This document shows positions 2,600 through 11,974 of a DNA stretch of 64,000 nucleotides, one piece after another. The first letter of the stretch is position 1. The number at the start of each line of letters is the position of its first letter. A model generated the notes under the pieces. It did not search any database. It saw nothing but the letters and a program-made list of their open reading frames with translations, and was not told the origin of the DNA. The DNA comes from Candidatus Omnitrophota bacterium (GTDB lineage Bacteria; Omnitrophota; Gorgyraeia; Pluralincolimonadales; Pluralincolimonadaceae). The translations under genes and the position numbers were made by a program. The stretch lies in the NCBI GenBank assembly GCA_003141835.1, contig PLNR01000004.1, positions 13,943 to 77,942 of the forward strand, read 5' to 3'.

Positions 2600-3867
2600 C
2601 TTTTGCCCTTTGCCTTTTTAGATTTATCCAGTATCCTCGCCGGCACTCCTACTGCGACAGCTTTCGCCGGGATGTTATTGTTTTTTAAGACGACGCTTCC
2701 CGCGCCTGTGACGGCGCCGTTGCCGACCTTGACCGGGGCGACCAGTATTGTGCCGCTCCCGACAAAGACTTTATCCCCTATCACGGTCCTGCTCTTTTTC
2801 TTGCCGTCGTAATTAGCGGTAATGGTGCCGCATCCCACGTTGGCGCCTTTACCGACGACGGTATCGCCGAGATAGGTAAGGTGTTTTGCTTTAGATTTAG
2901 AACCGATCTTCGAACGTACGATTTCGACGAAATTACCTATTTCCGCGTCGTCATCGATAGTCGTGCCCGGCCTTAACCTGCAGAACGGCCCGATCGCGCA
3001 GCGTTTGCCGATGACCACGTCTTTCTCTATAAAAGTAAAAGGATAAATGACCGTGTCTTTACCGATCTTCGCATCCGGAGATATGAAAGTCGTAGCAGGG
3101 TCGAGTACCGTGACCGAACCCTTGATAAGTTCCGCGACTTTCCTCCGGCCCAATACAGAATACGCTTTAGCCAAATCCGCCCTCGAGTTCATCCCGATTG
3201 ACTCGCCGGGATCGTCCGTCTTGAATGCGCTGACTTTCCTTCCGTCTTCCAGGAGGATCTCAATTACATCGGTCAGGTAAAATTCCTTCTTGACCTTCGA
3301 CTTCTGCACCCTGCTTATGGCTTCAAAGAGGTCCTTGCGGTCGAAACAGTAGAGCCCGACGTTTATCTCGCGGACCCGCTTCTCATCCGCGACCGCCTCT
3401 TTATCTTCGACGATCGCTTTTACGCCGCCTGATATCCCGCGGATGATCCTGCCGTACCCGGACGGATCGTCCATGTCTACGGTCAGTACCGTGCAGGAGG
3501 ACGCTGAAGCCTTGTGCTGCTTCATCAAGAACCGCAAAGTCCCTATTTTTACCAGGGGGACATCGCCGTAAAGGACCGCGATGTCATCAAATCCGGATAA
3601 TTCCTTCTTCGCAACCTTTACCGCGTCCGCCGTGCCGAGCTGCTTCTCCTGGACGACGGTCCTTGCCTTGCCCTTGAGGAAGCGCTCTGTCTCCCCGGCC
3701 TTGTGGCCTATCACGACGACGGGCTTTTCGAACCCGCATGCCGACGCCGTGTCCAGGACATGCTGGAGGATGGGTTTCCCGTGCAGGTCATGCAGGACTT
3801 TCGGTATATCGGAATAGAAACGCGTTCCCTTGCCGGCGGCAAGGATCACACAACCGAAGCCGCTCAA
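2596..3867 (-). CDS. glmU: bifunctional UDP-N-acetylglucosamine pyrophosphorylase / glucosamine-1-phosphate N-acetyltransferase
   Basis: ILAAGKGTRFYSDIPKVLH is the nucleotidyltransferase N-terminus, followed by C-terminal hexapeptide (LbH) repeats. The gene overlaps prs by 4 nt. Confidence 0.9.
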   Translation of the reverse strand: MSGFGCVILAAGKGTRFYSDIPKVLHDLHGKPILQHVLDTASACGFEKPVVVIGHKAGETERFLKGKARTVVQEKQLGTADAVKVAKKELSGFDDIAVLYGDVPLVKIGTLRFLMKQHKASASSCTVLTVDMDDPSGYGRIIRGISGGVKAIVEDKEAVADEKRVREINVGLYCFDRKDLFEAISRVQKSKVKKEFYLTDVIEILLEDGRKVSAFKTDDPGESIGMNSRADLAKAYSVLGRRKVAELIKGSVTVLDPATTFISPDAKIGKDTVIYPFTFIEKDVVIGKRCAIGPFCRLRPGTTIDDDAEIGNFVEIVRSKIGSKSKAKHLTYLGDTVVGKGANVGCGTITANYDGKKKSRTVIGDKVFVGSGTILVAPVKVGNGAVTGAGSVVLKNNNIPAKAVAVGVPARILDKSKKAKGKR

Positions 3868-3883: not shown

Positions 3884-5140
3884 TTAGGCTATTTTACGTT
3901 TGTCTTTGTCTTCGCCGCGCGCGATGAGTATCGGCATGGTCTTGCGCGTGACGCATTCCGGCGTGATTATGCACTCCGCGATATCGTTCTGCGACGGAAT
4001 ATCATACATCACTTCGAACATTATCTCTTCGAGTATCGAGCGCAGGCCGCGAGCGCCGGTGCCCTTATGCAGGGCTTCTTTCGCGATCGCGACGAGCGAA
4101 TCTTCGGGGATCGTAAGCTTGACGTTCTCCATCTCGAAAAATTTCGTATACTGTTTTACCAGCGAATTCTTGGGCTTGACCAAAACCTCTACGAGGTCTT
4201 TCTCGTCAAGCGGGTTGAGCGTTGCGACCACCGGCAGGCGCCCCACGAATTCCGGGATCATCCCGAACTTTAACAGGTCCTCCGGCTCGACCCGGGAAAG
4301 GAGGTCTCCCATCTTCTTGGCCTTGCTGGCCTGCGGCTCGTCGAGATAAGTGTTGAAGCCTATCGTCTTCTTGCCTATCCTGCGCTCGATTATCTTGTCG
4401 ATGGTCGAGAAAGTCCCTCCGCATATAAAAAGTATGTTGGTCGTATCGACCTGTATATATTCCTGCTGCGGGTGTTTCCTTCCGCCCTGCGGCGGGACGT
4501 TGGCGGTCGTCCCTTCCAGTATCTTCAACAGCGCCTGCTGGACGCCCTCTCCGGAGACATCCCTCGTGACCGAGACGTTCTCATGGGTCTTGCCGATCTT
4601 GTCTATCTCGTCGATATATATTATCCCGTGCTGCGCGCGTTTTACGTCGTAATTGCACGCCTGGAGAAGGCGCAAGAGCACGTTCTCGACGTCCTCGCCG
4701 ACGTAACCGGCCTCTGTCAACGGCGTGGCGTCGCACAGGGCAAACGGCACATCCAGGACCTTCGCGAGCGTCCGCGCCAGGAGCGTCTTGCCGGACCCGG
4801 TGGGCCCGATAAGCAGGACGTTTGACTTCTCGAACTCGACGTCGCGGCTCTGTACCTGCGTGACTATGCGTTTGTAATGGTTGTATACGCCAACGGAAAG
4901 CTGCCTCTTGGCGCGATCCTGCCCGACTATGTATTGGTCGAGCTGGCGCTTTAATTCGGCGGGCTTTAAAAGTTCCTTGACGCGGGTCTCGCGCTTCTGC
5001 TTAAGCTCCTCTTCCTCGTCGCTGGACAAGATCTGTCCGCAAAGCTTGACGCAGCTCTCGCAGATATACGCGCCCTGCCCCGAAAATAGTTTCTTCACTT
5101 TTTCGCGGGATTTCCCGCAAAACGAACATCTCTCTGTCAT
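3884..5140 (-). CDS. clpX: ATP-dependent Clp protease ATP-binding subunit ClpX
   Basis: The N-terminal C4 zinc finger (CSFCGK...CESC) is followed by Walker [12 protein letters not shown], a sensor region and the IGF-like loop. Confidence 0.95.
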
Positions 5141-5157: not shown

Positions 5158-5231
5158 TGGTTGCCCGGTGAGGATTCGAACCTCAACGCCGAGATCCAAA
5201 TTCTCGTGTGCTACCTTTACACTACCGGGCA
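5158..5231 (-). tRNA. tRNA-Gln (anticodon UUG)
   Basis: The minus-strand read TGCCCGGTAGTGTAAAGGTAGCACACGAGAATTTGGATCTCGGCGTTGAGGTTCGAATCCTCACCGGGCAACCA has a 7-bp acceptor stem (TGCCCGG/CCGGGCA), an anticodon stem CGAGA/TCTCG with loop ATTTGGA (anticodon TTG), a T-arm TGAGG-TTCGAAT-CCTCA and an encoded CCA. It lies 18 nt upstream of the clpX start. Confidence 0.8.
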
Positions 5232-6672: not shown

Positions 6673-7626
6673 CTATCCTTTAGGATACTTTTTGGCTTTA
6701 AGGAGTTCGAGCGCCGCTTTCACGATGCCTTCGGCGCTAAGGCCGAAATATTTCATGAGCTCCAGGGCATCACCGGATTCGCCGAAACGGTCCTTCATCC
6801 CGACCATGCGCACCGGGACGGGGCAATTTTCGGCCAGGACCTCGACGACGGCGCTTCCCATCCCGCCTACGACAGTGTGCTCTTCGGCGGTGACGATAGC
6901 GCCGGTCTCTTTCGCGGCTTTTATTATCTCTTCCTTGTCTATCGGCTTTACCGTATGGAGGTTTACCACTCGGGATGACACTCCCAGTTTTTTGAGGTCG
7001 TCCCTCGCTTTCAGCGCCTCATGGACCATTACACCCGTCCCGATTATTGTGAGGTCTGAACCGTCGGCCATGCGCAGGGCCTTGCCTATTTTATAACTGT
7101 CCTTGTAGTCTGTTATTATGGGGAAGGGTTCGCGTCCCAGCCTTAGGTATACCGGCCCGGGATGTGAAGCGGCGGCGATCGTCGCAAGCCGCGCCTCTTC
7201 GGAATCGCACGGCACTATCACCGTCATGTTCGGCAGGACGCGCATAAGCGTTATCTCTTCAAGCGCCTGGTGCGAGGCGCCGTCAGGCCCGACCGATATC
7301 CCGCCGTGGCTGCCCGCGATCTTGACGTTCAGGTTCATGTAGCAGACCGAAAGGCGTATTTGGTCCCAGGCGCGGCCCGAGGCGAATACTCCGAACGTGC
7401 ACGCGAACGGGACCTTGCCGCTCAGCGCGAAACCCGCGGCGGTGGATATCATGTCCTGCTCGGCCACGCCGAAATCGAAGAACCTCTCCGGATATTTATC
7501 CCTGAACCAGTTGGCGCGCACCGAGGCGGTAAGGTCCGCGGAAAGCACCACGACATTACTGTTCGACTTCCCGAGCTCTACCAGCGCCTCGCCGAATCCG
7601 TCGCGTGTAGGTTTGATGACAGGCAT
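6673..7626 (-). CDS. transketolase, C-terminal (pyrimidine-binding/C-terminal domain) subunit
   Basis: At 317 aa it matches the split-transketolase C-terminal subunit (…GEDGPTHQ-like ISVGPDGASHQALEEI…), directly downstream of the N-terminal subunit. Confidence 0.85.
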   Translation of the reverse strand: MPVIKPTRDGFGEALVELGKSNSNVVVLSADLTASVRANWFRDKYPERFFDFGVAEQDMISTAAGFALSGKVPFACTFGVFASGRAWDQIRLSVCYMNLNVKIAGSHGGISVGPDGASHQALEEITLMRVLPNMTVIVPCDSEEARLATIAAASHPGPVYLRLGREPFPIITDYKDSYKIGKALRMADGSDLTIIGTGVMVHEALKARDDLKKLGVSSRVVNLHTVKPIDKEEIIKAAKETGAIVTAEEHTVVGGMGSAVVEVLAENCPVPVRMVGMKDRFGESGDALELMKYFGLSAEGIVKAALELLKAKKYPKG

Positions 7627-8457
7627 TTACTTAAGGCCCTCTTCTATCTCTTTGAGCGCTTTTTCAAGGTCGGCCTTCTTGACGGCCGTGCCGTGGTATC
7701 CGGGCGCGTTCTTCTCGATGAACGAGACTCCCTTGCCCTTTACCGTATGCGCGATTATCACCGTGGGTTTCCCTTTTATCATCTCGGCCTTATCGAGCGC
7801 GTCCATTATCTGCTTGAAATCGTGGCCGTCTATCTCTATGACGTGCCAGCCGAAAGCGAGCCATTTGTCCTTTACCGGCTCGAGGTTCTTTATGTCGCTA
7901 GTCCAGCCGTCTATCTGCTGCTTGTTGAGGTCTACGATGGCGCAGAGGTTGTCTATCTTGTAATGCGCGGCGGTCATGGCGGCTTCCCATACCTGCCCTT
8001 CGTCAAGCTCGCCGTCGCCAAGCAGGCAATATACCCTGTAATCCTTGAAATCCATGCGCGCGGAGAGCGCCATCCCGTCGGAGATGGAGAGCCCCTGTCC
8101 GAGCGATCCGGTCGAGGCCTCGCAACCGGGCGTACTGAGGCTCGCGTGCCCCTGGAGTATTGAACCGCGCTTGCGCACGGTCATTAGAGTTTCGCGCGGG
8201 AAGAATCCCCTGTGCGCGAGCACCGCGTAGAGCGTCGGGCAGGTGTGCCCCTTTGAAAGGACGAACCTGTCCCTCTCCGGCCATTTGATATTCTTGGGAT
8301 CATAACGCAACTTATAATAATAAAGCGCGACGACGAGCTCGACGCACGAGAGCGATCCGGACGTATGCCCGGACCCCGCCTCGGAGAGCATCGTCAGGAC
8401 GTCTTTTCTTATCTCTTTGGCCGTATCTTTTAACTGGTCGAGGCTTGGTCTTGCCAT
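7627..8457 (-). CDS. transketolase, N-terminal (TPP-binding) subunit
   Basis: The TPP-binding motif GHTSGSLS...GDGELDEGQVWEA is present. The ORF-track frame extends to 8685, but the likely true start is the ATG at 8455-8457 (MARPSLDQLKD...). That start overlaps the upstream TPR-gene stop as TAATG. Confidence 0.8.
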   Translation of the reverse strand: MARPSLDQLKDTAKEIRKDVLTMLSEAGSGHTSGSLSCVELVVALYYYKLRYDPKNIKWPERDRFVLSKGHTCPTLYAVLAHRGFFPRETLMTVRKRGSILQGHASLSTPGCEASTGSLGQGLSISDGMALSARMDFKDYRVYCLLGDGELDEGQVWEAAMTAAHYKIDNLCAIVDLNKQQIDGWTSDIKNLEPVKDKWLAFGWHVIEIDGHDFKQIMDALDKAEMIKGKPTVIIAHTVKGKGVSFIEKNAPGYHGTAVKKADLEKALKEIEEGLK

Positions 8458-9989
8458 TATTTCCCTGTTTTCTTCAATTTTTCGAGCTTCTCTTTGATCG
8501 ACGGCTGGTCTGCTTTCAATTCCAGCGATTTTTTCCAGACGTCCTCCGCCTTCGCCGTCAGGCCTTTCTTGTAATACGCGTCCCCGAGGTGGTCGTAAAG
8601 TATCGAATCTTTCCCGTAGGCCGTTATCGCCTTCTCGAGCTGTGTTATCGCCTCGTCGGTCATCCCCTTCTTGTAATACGCCCACCCGAGGCTGTCTATA
8701 TAGGCGCCGTTATCCGGGCTGAGATCGAGGGCGCGCTTGATGAGGGTTATCGCCTCGTCGAGGTTCGTCCCGTCTTCAGCGTACATATAACCCAGAAAAT
8801 TCAGCGCGTCGGCATGCTTGGGGTTGAGCTCGATCGCCTTCTTCAACTCTTCTATGGCAAGCGCTTTCTCCCCCGCGCTTTCGTAGGCCGAGGCCAGGTA
8901 AAAATATCCGTCGGAATCCTTAGGGGCGAGTTCTACCGCCCGCTTGTAAGAGCCGAGGGCTTCCTTCGTCATCTTCTTCTGCGAATAGGCCATGCCTTTT
9001 ACTATATAGGCCAGGCTGGCGCGAGGCTCATCTTTTATTGCGACCGCCTTATCCAGAAGGGCAAGGGCTTCGTCCGGCTTCTTCTCGTTGAGGTAGACAT
9101 ACGCCAGCTCCAGGTATCCCTCTATCTTATCCGGCGCAAGGCTGACTATGAGCTTATAGGTCGAGATAGCGTCGTCGGGCTTACCGGCGCGGTAATAGGC
9201 GTGCGCCAGCAGGCTGTATATCCTCGTGTTCAGCGGTTCGGCCTCGAGGGTCTTCTTGTAATCCTCTATCGCCTTGGCGTAATCGCCCTTGAGCTCCCAG
9301 ATTATCGCCCTGCTTAAGCGCGCTTCCGCGTAATCCGGGTTGAGTTTTACCGCCGTGTCGAAATGCGTGAGCGCGTCATCGTATTTCCCCAACTTCGTGT
9401 AAAAGATCCCTAACGTAAAATGTATGAGGGCCGACTCCTTGCCTTCCTTGAGGATATCCTCATAGACCTTGGCGGCCTCCTCGATCTTCTGCTGCACCAC
9501 GTAAAGGTCGGCAAGCGAGGCGAGGGCCTTGATATCGTGCGGGTCCCTTTTTACTATCTCCTCGTACTGTTCGGCGGCCTTGTCGAATTTCTTCTGTATC
9601 GTGTAAAGGAGGGCGAGGGTGAAACGGGCGTTGGCGTCGGACGGGTCGCTTTCTATGGCGATGTTAAGGTATTTCGCGGCCTCTTCCGATTTGTTGAGCC
9701 GGATGTAATCCAGCGCTATGCTCGTATTTATGGTAGAGGACTTCGGGTCCTGCTGTAAGGCTTTCTTGTATTCCTCGATTCCCTGCTCGAACTTTGATTC
9801 GTTATCGAGGACGTTACCCATCAGGAAATGGGCATAGGAGCTCGTATCGGCGCTTTTCGATTTTTGGCCTTCCGAAAAAAGCGTATCGTAATCGGAAAGG
9901 CGCTCGGAAGACCTGCAATAGAGGGGCGACCCTTTTATTACGGCAAAAAGGGCCACCCCTGCAATGGCGATGAGAATATACTTTTTCAC
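8457..9989 (-). CDS. TPR-repeat protein (N-terminal signal/anchor)
   Basis: Multiple tetratricopeptide repeats of the form A..Y..A..P.....A..LG..Y run throughout the protein, behind a hydrophobic N-terminus. Confidence 0.8.
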   Translation of the reverse strand: MKKYILIAIAGVALFAVIKGSPLYCRSSERLSDYDTLFSEGQKSKSADTSSYAHFLMGNVLDNESKFEQGIEEYKKALQQDPKSSTINTSIALDYIRLNKSEEAAKYLNIAIESDPSDANARFTLALLYTIQKKFDKAAEQYEEIVKRDPHDIKALASLADLYVVQQKIEEAAKVYEDILKEGKESALIHFTLGIFYTKLGKYDDALTHFDTAVKLNPDYAEARLSRAIIWELKGDYAKAIEDYKKTLEAEPLNTRIYSLLAHAYYRAGKPDDAISTYKLIVSLAPDKIEGYLELAYVYLNEKKPDEALALLDKAVAIKDEPRASLAYIVKGMAYSQKKMTKEALGSYKRAVELAPKDSDGYFYLASAYESAGEKALAIEELKKAIELNPKHADALNFLGYMYAEDGTNLDEAITLIKRALDLSPDNGAYIDSLGWAYYKKGMTDEAITQLEKAITAYGKDSILYDHLGDAYYKKGLTAKAEDVWKKSLELKADQPSIKEKLEKLKKTGK

Positions 9990-10015
9990 CTTGGAAAGTC
10001 AGCTTTCAAGAAGAA

Positions 10016-10105
10016 TTACTTCTTCTTGTGCCTGTCCCTGCGGAGCCTCTTTTTTCTCTTGTGCGTCCTGATCTTTCTTCTTTTGCGCTTTTTACCGCAC
10101 GGCAT
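10016..10105 (-). CDS. 29-aa Arg/Lys-rich small protein (bS22/ribosomal-like basic peptide?)
   Basis: This ORF is not in the ORF track because it falls below the length cutoff. It reads ATG CCG TGC GGT AAA AAG CGC ... TAA, giving MPCGKKRKRRKIRTHKRKKRLRRDRHKKK, and is preceded by a perfect SD (AAAGGAGG) 9 nt upstream of the ATG. Confidence 0.45.
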   Translation of the reverse strand: MPCGKKRKRRKIRTHKRKKRLRRDRHKKK

Positions 10106-10121
10106 CTTGTGCTGCCTCCTT

Positions 10122-10997
10122 TTAATATATGACTTTATTGAGCGGGTATTCGATTATGCCTTCCGCCCCGGCCTGTTTCAATTTGGGTATGAGCTCGCGC
10201 ACCTGTTTCTCGTCGATGATCGTCTCGATGGCGCACCATCCGGGAACACTCAGCTGCGAAATGGTGGGCCTGCGCATGGCCGGAAGGATGCCGAGTATCT
10301 TTTTTAAGTTCTTGTTGGCGATGTTCATCTTCAGGCCGACCTTCTCCTCGGCGGCTATGGCGCCCTTGAGGAGTATGGCGATCTTCTCTATCTTCGCCTT
10401 CTTCCAGGGATCTTTCCAGGATTTTTTGTTGGCGATCAATTGCGTCGTCGAGGTGCAGAGCGTCTCGACTATTTTCAGGTTGTGCGCGCGCAACGAAGAG
10501 CCGGTCTCGGTAAGCTCGACGATGGCGTCGACCAGGCCGGAATACACCTTGGCCTCTGTCGCGCCCCACGAGAACTCCACGTCGGCGTTGACCTTCTTCT
10601 TCTTAAAATATTCTTTTGTGAAATTTACGAGCTCGGTGGCGATCCTCTTGCCGTTAAGGTCCTTCACCCCGCGGATATTGGAATTCTCCGGGACGGCGAG
10701 GACCCATCTTACCGGGTTGAGGCTCTGTTTTGCGTAGGTAAGCTCTTCGACGCGGACTATGTCGGATTTGTTCTCGAGTATCCAGTCGTTGCCGGTGATG
10801 CCGCAGTCGAGGATGCCCTGTTCGACATACCGCGACATCTCCTGAGCCCTTAACAGGACAGGGGCAAGCTCCGGGTCGTCGGTCGAAGGGAAATACGACC
10901 TCTCCGAGCCGGATATGGAGAACCCGGCCTTCTTAAACAGTTTAAAGGTAGCCTCTTGCAGGCTACCTTTAGGTAAACCTATTTTCAGTTTGGACAT
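10122..10997 (-). CDS. hisG: ATP phosphoribosyltransferase (long form)
   Basis: [22 protein letters not shown] is the HisG N-terminus. At 291 aa it includes the C-terminal regulatory domain. Confidence 0.85.
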
Positions 10998-11022
10998 GGC
11001 TCATATTCTATATTCAACGAGC

Positions 11023-11394
11023 CTAAAAGTCAACGATATTTTCGCCGGAAGACAGCTGGTCCGTCAGTACGAGCTCTTCGGCGAGGTCGTCTCTTGAAAG
11101 GAGCGCTACCGAAACGAGGGTCGGCCCCCTGGAGGCAAAGGAGAACAGGACGATGTTTAACGCTAAAATAAACATCGCCGCGGCAAGCACCGGTTTGGGC
11201 TGGAAAAAGGCAAAGGAGATCCCGTCCAGCCATCCGGCGAACCCGTAGCTGCGGTTCGACTTACGGCTGTCTATGGCATCCAATCTCTCCCCCAGCTCCC
11301 TGTCGAACTCCGGCCAGAACCCTTTCGGGGGCTCGGGAGCCTTCCTCTTCGATATCATATCCATTATATCCTTAAATGACGCCATATTCTCCAC
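11023..11394 (-). CDS. putative membrane anti-sigma factor
   Basis: A 123-aa protein with a single TM (VLAAAMFILALNIVLFSFA) overlaps the ECF sigma gene by 23 nt. The call rests on position only. Confidence 0.4.
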   Translation of the reverse strand: MENMASFKDIMDMISKRKAPEPPKGFWPEFDRELGERLDAIDSRKSNRSYGFAGWLDGISFAFFQPKPVLAAAMFILALNIVLFSFASRGPTLVSVALLSRDDLAEELVLTDQLSSGENIVDF

Positions 11395-11974
11395 CCCCCT
11401 CCGTTTTTATGTATGGCGATAACGCCTTCTGTAAATTCTTTGTCGCGCGGAAAAGATGCACTTTCGCGGTCGACTCGCTGCATTTTATCATATCCGCTAT
11501 CTCGCCCAATTTCATGCCGTGCATATGCCTTAATACAAAAGTTATTTTCTGCTTCTCCGGCAGCCTGTTTATAGCCTCGTCGACTTTTTCGCGTATCTCC
11601 TTATTGAGGAGCGCCTTCCTCGGGCCCGGCCCGTTGTCGACCGCCTCGACCGGCGCCTCGTCGTCCTCATCCGCCGGCTCCCGGACCTCGACGAGGACCC
11701 TGATCCTGGCCTGCTTTTTCCTCAAGACATCCTTGCACTGGTTCAGGAGTATCCTGTAAAACCACGTGTAAAACGCTGAGCCGCCGCGGAATTTCCCGAT
11801 ATTCAAATACGCCTTGACGAAAGCTTCCTGCAGCACGTCCTTGGCGTCCTCGGCGTTGCCGGTAAAATTGTAAGCGAGGGCGAACGCCTTCCCCTTGTAC
11901 ATATCCACAAGTGAGTCGAACGCCGCCCGTTCGCCATTCCTGGCCCGTTCAATAAGCAGAAGTTCCGGATCCAA
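11372..11974 (-). CDS. ECF-type RNA polymerase sigma factor (sigma-70 family, region 2/4)
   Basis: Region 2 (AFVKAYLNIGKFRGGSAFYTWFYRILLN) and the region 4 helix-turn-helix (LGEIADMIKCSESTAKVHLFRA) are both present. Confidence 0.85.
   Translation of the reverse strand: MDPELLLIERARNGERAAFDSLVDMYKGKAFALAYNFTGNAEDAKDVLQEAFVKAYLNIGKFRGGSAFYTWFYRILLNQCKDVLRKKQARIRVLVEVREPADEDDEAPVEAVDNGPGPRKALLNKEIREKVDEAINRLPEKQKITFVLRHMHGMKLGEIADMIKCSESTAKVHLFRATKNLQKALSPYIKTEGGGEYGVI

Follow-up and report, generated by a model that had tools for sequence, protein, structure and literature searches.

A small gene behind hisG in an Omnitrophota bacterium very likely encodes an orthologue of the ribosomal protein bS22

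The 64-kb stretch of Omnitrophota DNA analyzed here, called the window below, carries on its minus strand a small open reading frame (ORF) between hisG and a gene for a TPR-repeat protein (Table 1). The ORF runs from an ATG at 10105-10103 to a TAA at 10018-10016; its start lies 16 nt past the hisG stop, and its end lies 26 nt ahead of the TPR gene. It had been pointed out in an earlier note on this DNA, and the position, strand, length of 29 codons and translation given there all proved exact on re-reading. The description of the ORF as lying between the TPR gene and hisG was right as to placement, the order on the coding strand being hisG, ORF and TPR gene, and the gap between the two larger genes, put at 130 bp, measured 132 nt (10121..9990). 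The Shine-Dalgarno sequence and its 9-nt spacing could be confirmed in the letters 10122-10106. This Shine-Dalgarno contains AAGGAGG, and its first A is also the final base of the TAA stop of hisG. The peptide has 19 Lys/Arg residues (66% of 29 aa) and 2 His, giving 21 basic residues and not the 22 counted previously. Its size and basicity fall within the range used to recognize bS22 (~28-31 aa, ~60% or more Lys plus Arg), and it is of a short form with the C terminus ...RDRHKKK. A single copy of such an ORF was present in the window.

Table 1. Features of the window, and bS22 genes or proteins from other sources to which they were compared
Feature	Source	Coordinates	Strand	Remarks
Putative bS22 (rpsV-like) CDS	Window	10016..10105	-	29 codons + TAA; product MPCGKKRKRRKIRTHKRKKRLRRDRHKKK
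Shine-Dalgarno sequence AAAGGAGG	Window	10115..10122	-	Read directly; 9 nt (10114-10106) before ATG
hisG, long-form ATP phosphoribosyltransferase	Window	10122..10997	-	TIGR00070 181 bits, TIGR03455 109 bits, PF01634, PF08029
TPR-repeat protein, N-terminal hydrophobic segment	Window	8457..9989 (GTG start 9989)	-	Multiple TPR Pfam and NCBIfam matches
Candidate sigma-70-like promoter TTGAAA-17-CATAAT	Window	10153..10181	-	Consensus scan only, 10/12 matches; within hisG 3' end
Promoter-like site	Window	11033..11005		Immediately ahead of hisG
123-aa ORF	Window	11023..11394	-	No family match
ECF-type sigma factor	Window	11372..11974	-	TIGR02937
Transketolase, split over two adjacent ORFs	Window	6673..8685	-	N-terminal half 7627..8685, C-terminal half 6673..7626; NF004559 positions 8-281 and 319-625, respectively
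tRNA	Window	5161..5231	-	RF00005, 59 bits
Long-form bS22, examples	L015; L013	4892..5002; 4970..5071
31-aa bS22 homologue	L081; L082-L085	3001..3096; 3001..3096		Directly after HU (Bac_DNA_binding), downstream of SLT/LysM transglycosylase
Solved bS22	F. johnsoniae			Fjoh_1533; 7JIL
Solved bS22	P. gingivalis			AAQ66340.1; 9I5V/9I5X
Solved bS22	Borrelia burgdorferi			bb0822; 8FMW
Actinobacterial bS22	M. smegmatis			MSMEG_0945; 5O5J/5O61

The surroundings of the ORF were examined for signals that could bear on its expression. hisG is its probable operon partner, and the ORF would probably be expressed either from a hisG co-transcript or from the candidate promoter at 10181-10153. No terminator-like hairpin was found on the minus strand in the interval from the ORF to the TPR start; hairpins of this kind near 9952-9970 on the same strand were discounted, as they fall in the part of the TPR gene that encodes the N-terminal hydrophobic segment. 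An Rfam scan of the whole 64-kb window at the gathering threshold detected no leader family, a tRNA being the sole match, and a scan of the region 9850-10300 at a permissive threshold returned nothing better than E 0.5. On the other side of hisG, the gene for an ECF-type sigma factor is followed by a 123-aa ORF directly upstream of hisG, which may encode an anti-sigma factor. Beyond the TPR gene, a transketolase is split into two halves. The N-terminal half as called shares ~230 nt with the end of the TPR gene, its true start being probably internal, and it comes after the TPR gene also in L022, one of the related loci described below.

We searched all PDB chains with the window peptide by phmmer, in line with a suggestion of the earlier note to look for bS22 similarity. 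Exactly three sequences were matched, and each was a bS22 chain aligned end to end over residues 1-29, with E values from 3.4e-7 to 2.2e-6. The identities were 22/29 with F. johnsoniae bS22 (7jil_5, E 3.4e-7), 22/29 with a P. gingivalis chain (9i5v_10) and 20/28 with Borrelia burgdorferi bS22 (8fmw_V). As a high Lys/Arg content might by itself produce such scores, the peptide was shuffled 200,000 times with its composition kept and Met1 fixed. The shuffled peptides had about 7 identities on average and 16-17 at most, as against the 20-22 observed. The non-basic landmarks M1, P2, G4, T14, H15 and H26 all coincided with those of the bS22 chains. When a profile was made from Omnitrophota peptides together with these three chains, it scored the chains at E 5e-12 to 1.4e-10, and 15 residues were invariant in the corresponding alignment of 23 sequences. 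Judged by its sequence, the ORF is thus homologous to structure-verified bS22.

The names under which the matched chains were deposited required some care. The P. gingivalis chain bears the deposited name "AURKAIP1/COX24 domain-containing protein"; it was modelled as bS22 (PMC12123416). The 30-aa F. johnsoniae sequence is labelled "30S ribosomal protein S22" or "50S ribosomal protein L38" across depositions (PDB 7JIL chain 5; 9OZ9, 9OZN, 9OZZ and 9P0E). An identity with bL38 was considered and rejected: the basic 30-aa protein Fjoh_1533 is bS22, and bL38 of F. johnsoniae is Fjoh_4981, a DUF4295 beta-hairpin protein (PMC7797042). An AlphaFold model of a 31-aa proxy with 97% identity consisted of one helix (residues 5-30, pLDDT 88). 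This agrees with bS22, but a lone helix has no discriminating power, and a Foldseek search of the PDB with this single-helix model returned nothing.

Next, the ORF was followed across Omnitrophota. A search of one genome per GTDB species with the window hisG gave 80 loci, in which hisG was 67-98% identical to that of the window. Most of them were labelled as Candidatus Omnitrophota or Omnitrophica metagenome-assembled genomes (MAGs), about 12 as "uncultured Planctomycetia/Planctomycetales" and one as "bacterium." Three of the 80 contigs stop within 30 nt of hisG, and in all of the 77 loci with sequence there a small ORF came next after hisG on the same strand. In a first pass, the ORF had seemed to be absent from 11 loci, and all of these absences were artefacts: 3 were contig ends, 7 were calls in which upstream starts had made the ORF longer, and 1 was an N-masked stretch. 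The latter was in L022 (JAPLLZ010000037.1, ~4987..5060), where the N run lies inside the ORF while MPCG... and ...KRKKLRRRLRHLKKRAWGGKG are still legible. The earlier note had proposed examining conservation and hisG synteny in relatives, and took loss of the ORF or of its frame there as evidence against a gene; no such loss was seen, the ORF being in frame beside hisG in 77/77 loci.

The first 28 codons were then compared in 77 sequences (76 loci plus the window). They comprised 75 distinct DNA versions and 39 distinct peptides. Column entropy was 1.18 at third codon positions, 0.43 at first positions and 0.35 at second positions, and the pooled pN/pS was 0.18, with pS (0.82) already saturated. 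Relative to L003 and L004, the window showed 6-7 synonymous changes and no nonsynonymous ones. Among the nine closest sequences, the sole indel within the ORF was an in-frame insertion of 6 nt, and the spacers flanking the ORF carried indels of 1, 2 and 4 nt. A Shine-Dalgarno-like motif (GGAG, AGGAG, GGAGG, GAGG or AGGA) was present 4-12 nt before the start in 75/76 loci, and the spacer between hisG and the ORF varied in sequence and in length, from 9 to 276 nt. A TPR homologue lay directly downstream on the same strand in 73/74 loci. These homologues were only 24-88% identical to the TPR protein of the window, so the TPR protein is far less conserved than the peptide. Close relatives of the window shared its short ...RDRHKKK form, and the more distant Omnitrophota (L011-L080) mostly had a longer peptide of 33-36 aa ending in ...RLRHLKKRAWG(GKG), which includes a conserved Trp; no solved bS22 chain has this tail. 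Purifying selection acts on the protein that the ORF encodes, and the ORF is a real protein-coding gene that is strongly conserved in its lineage. The earlier note had read the peptide as bS22-like, and this reading was borne out by the full-length match to structure-verified bS22 chains, by the selection acting at the protein level and by the synteny with hisG. As the best explanation, the ORF very likely encodes an Omnitrophota orthologue of bS22, of the Bacteroidota/Spirochaete sequence type.

In addition, 5.8 billion protein clusters were searched for homologues. The query was the 40-codon in-frame read-through of the window, of which the 11 upstream residues are non-coding. This search found 401 relatives, and the core MPxG[KR]K[KR]K...THKRKK...RHKK was present in 117 of the 120 listed. 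In the two relatives that were checked in their contigs, the neighborhood was SLT/LysM, HU, the peptide and exonuclease VII, and these neighborhoods also encoded Por_Secre_tail (T9SS-type) proteins. The bS22 gene next to HU belongs to another lineage and stands in another context.

The gene has largely escaped annotation. The 120 relatives listed, of the 401, had neither Pfam domains nor informative names, and Pfam and NCBIfam scans of the window peptide gave no match. The exact 29-aa peptide was not in a collection of 15 billion proteins, and the 29-31-aa forms that were looked up were missing from it too; the 33-36-aa Omnitrophota variants were present, all as "hypothetical protein" (e.g., OQB08986.1). 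The claim that such peptides are missed by gene callers agrees with this absence and with the unnamed or "hypothetical" state of the relatives. Among the 117 relatives with the core (from proteins P0051-P0170), 73 had been given a false N-terminal extension of 1-39 residues by the gene caller; one of those wrongly extended, P0051, contains the exact peptide of the window. Several proteins of this set also overran the expected C terminus with unrelated tails, which may stem from errors of assembly or from differences in stop codons. In the library of papers searched, none mentions Omnitrophota together with bS22.

Other readings of the ORF were weighed against these results. It could be a regulatory leader or uORF, in which the act of translation, and not the product, controls hisG by attenuation or controls the TPR gene. 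Such a role would suit a short ORF with a strong Shine-Dalgarno in an intergenic gap, the more so as the 26 nt to the TPR start would allow translational coupling and as the order hisG-ORF-TPR was kept in 73/74 loci. However, a leader or attenuator of hisG, the alternative named in the earlier note, is excluded by the position of the ORF 3' of hisG and by its recurrence beside unrelated genes in other lineages. The ORF also has just two His codons, which are non-adjacent, no terminator-like hairpin precedes the TPR gene, and neither the gathering-threshold scan of the window nor the permissive scan of 9850-10300 revealed a his leader or another cis-regulatory family of Rfam. A leader of the TPR gene was rejected as well, since the bS22 gene follows HU in other lineages and is therefore free-standing. 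What is under strong purifying selection is the amino acid sequence itself, and the peptide is shared with lineages that have HU and exonuclease VII as neighbors and with proteins observed directly in ribosome structures. We therefore consider a regulatory leader to be highly improbable. Even less can be said for an open frame that arose by chance in a purine-rich spacer, with no gene at all. The ORF is indeed only 90 nt long and AG-rich, it has no Pfam or NCBIfam match, and its exact peptide has no entry in the large protein collection; but a chance frame would have to be reconciled with 77/77 loci in frame, with 75 distinct DNA sequences that vary at third positions, with an indel confined to whole codons among the nine closest sequences, with the retained Shine-Dalgarno and with 0/200,000 shuffles reaching the observed identity to bS22. 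Its probability is practically nil.

Two further readings accept a small basic protein and differ from an orthologue of bS22 in function or in family. The peptide may be bS22 by descent and act off the ribosome, for instance as a nucleic acid-binding or nucleoid-associated peptide, or by an antimicrobial or cell-penetrating activity. A peptide of such extreme basicity would bind any polyanion, its gene adjoins that of HU, a nucleoid protein, in other lineages, and its place on the ribosome within Omnitrophota is reached by deduction. On the other hand, 15 positions, non-basic ones among them, do not vary at all in Omnitrophota, Bacteroidota and Borrelia, so one specific, conserved binding pocket fits better than generic binding of polyanions. 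All members examined structurally were located in the 30S subunit (PMC10618245, PMC7797042, PMC12123416), and an off-ribosome role thus appears unlikely. The earlier note had also called the peptide "bS22/bTHX-like"; the first half of this label was upheld by the matches to solved chains, and the second was not. Like the window peptide, bTHX (Thermus thermophilus Thx, plastid PSRP4, and the plastid and mitochondrial forms bTHXc and bTHXm) is a tiny, basic peptide of the small subunit that often goes uncalled, and the likeness in size and basic composition made it a possibility. However, the two families did not meet in either direction. A Thx query against the PDB matched Thx, bTHXc, bTHXm and S31 chains and no bS22 chain; the window peptide and its profile matched no Thx chain at E <= 10; and hhalign gave a probability of 0.2%. 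Thx binds on top of the head of the 30S subunit and is not known to occupy the h44/h45 pocket. bTHX is a sequence family unrelated to the window peptide, and the chance that the ORF belongs to it is negligible.

With bS22 as the preferred reading, a role can be proposed from the solved homologues. In all three of them, the protein forms a bent helix in a pocket of 16S rRNA made of h2, h27, h44 and h45, beside the decoding center, and contacts H68/H70 of 23S rRNA in the 70S ribosome (PMC10618245, PMC7797042, PMC12123416). The mRNA of the Omnitrophota gene would be shared with hisG, probably, or would start from a promoter inside the hisG 3' end, and its own strong Shine-Dalgarno would drive translation. 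The resulting 29-residue peptide, 66% Lys/Arg, would fold as a helix, as suggested by the solved ribosomes of other phyla, and this helix would insert into the h2/h27/h44/h45 pocket adjoining the decoding center, with the C terminus meeting H68/H70 of 23S rRNA at the subunit interface. In this position, the peptide may neutralize backbone charge, stabilize h44 and shape the aminoglycoside-binding pocket. By analogy, we infer that the gene is expressed and that its product enters the Omnitrophota ribosome and functions there. With 76% identity and all invariant positions kept, the peptide most likely does the same job as solved bS22. In M. smegmatis, deletion of bS22 is tolerated, with a shift of h44 nucleotides 1388-1392 and a twofold higher sensitivity to aminoglycosides (10.1101/2023.03.31.535098); in Borrelia, the bS22 gene is an essential-gene candidate (PMC10618245). 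Since bS22 is dispensable in M. smegmatis, its presence alone is no gauge of its functional weight in Omnitrophota.

Omnitrophota are almost entirely uncultured and often ultra-small bacteria. The bS22 family is already known, and what is described here is a further member in this phylum, with no new mechanism. The phyla documented to have bS22 so far are Actinobacteria, Bacteroidota and Spirochaetota, to which Omnitrophota would be added if our reading is true. The Borrelia study predicted bS22 in further bacteria and noted that its short length defeats automated annotation (PMC10618245), a prediction that an Omnitrophota bS22 would bear out. In that study, bS22 was also the one ribosomal protein that mass spectrometry failed to identify (PMC10618245); trypsin cuts a peptide of this kind into very small pieces. 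The finding is of use for the annotation of bS22 and for its evolutionary distribution. The Pfam and NCBIfam models miss this subtype, and a dedicated profile for it would mend ribosomal-protein inventories in MAGs. In addition, as bS22 lies at the edge of the aminoglycoside pocket of h44, its presence, if true, bears on predicted antibiotic responses. A more far-reaching scheme can be drawn, in which bS22 is a core ribosomal protein inherited vertically in all Omnitrophota and possibly in further lineages, the long form makes a lineage-specific interface contact through its Trp, and the linkage to hisG couples the supply of bS22 to the transcription of histidine biosynthesis. Taken as a whole, this scheme is speculative and rather doubtful. 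If bS22 does have such a core status across Omnitrophota and possibly beyond, the peptide would be much older and wider in Bacteria than the structural record of three phyla.

Finally, the window peptide was compared with the other known forms of bS22. Actinobacterial bS22 and mitochondrial mS38 (AURKAIP1/Cox24) are likewise small, basic peptides, helical as is predicted for the window peptide, and they differ from the window peptide in having no significant sequence similarity to it. A mycobacterial-type bS22 query, whose sequence was verified against PDB chains (5O5J, 5O61 and others), matched mS38 chains in the PDB and not 7JIL, 8FMW or 9I5V; conversely, the Omnitrophota-type profile did not reach mycobacterial bS22 or mS38. 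According to hhalign, a profile of Omnitrophota, Bacteroidota and Borrelia sequences matched mycobacterial bS22 with a probability of 4.3% over 12 columns. The Pfam model PF08213 (COX24_C, cutoff 23 bits) gave 46.2 bits with mycobacterial-type bS22, and 12.7 and 11.8 bits, below the cutoff, with an Omnitrophota relative and the P. gingivalis protein. The weak alignments of these Bacteroidota/Spirochaete-type relatives were in the same register (5-30 of 33), and the window peptide had no match to the model at E <= 1. Actinobacterial bS22 and mS38 occupy the same h44/h45 pocket of 16S rRNA as the F. johnsoniae and Borrelia proteins (PMC10618245, PMC7797042, PMC12123416). Equivalence to them rests on this published structural superposition, not on sequence similarity.

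The closest likeness is to bS22 of Bacteroidota and Spirochaetota. These proteins have 28-30 aa and ~60-66% Lys/Arg, as exemplified by the 61% K/R of Borrelia bS22 (PMC10618245) and the 30 aa and pI of 12.7 of F. johnsoniae bS22 (PMC7797042), and the window peptide shares with them the ungapped motif MPxG[KR]KRK..K..THKRKK....RHKK. The helix predicted for the AlphaFold proxy agrees with the bent helix of these proteins and, as a lone helix, does not discriminate. They have been overlooked in the same way, the F. johnsoniae and P. gingivalis proteins as hypothetical and that of Borrelia as unannotated (PMC7797042, PMC12123416, PMC10618245). Differences lie in the signals, the form and the context of the gene. 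The window ORF has an ATG and a strong Shine-Dalgarno, whereas Borrelia bS22 has a GUG start and Bacteroidia mostly lack a Shine-Dalgarno. The long Omnitrophota form, with its conserved Trp tail, has no counterpart in solved Bacteroidota or Spirochaetota bS22. The HU-bS22 synteny is conserved among T9SS-bearing contigs, unlike the order hisG-bS22-TPR of Omnitrophota. The host phylum, Omnitrophota, differs as well.
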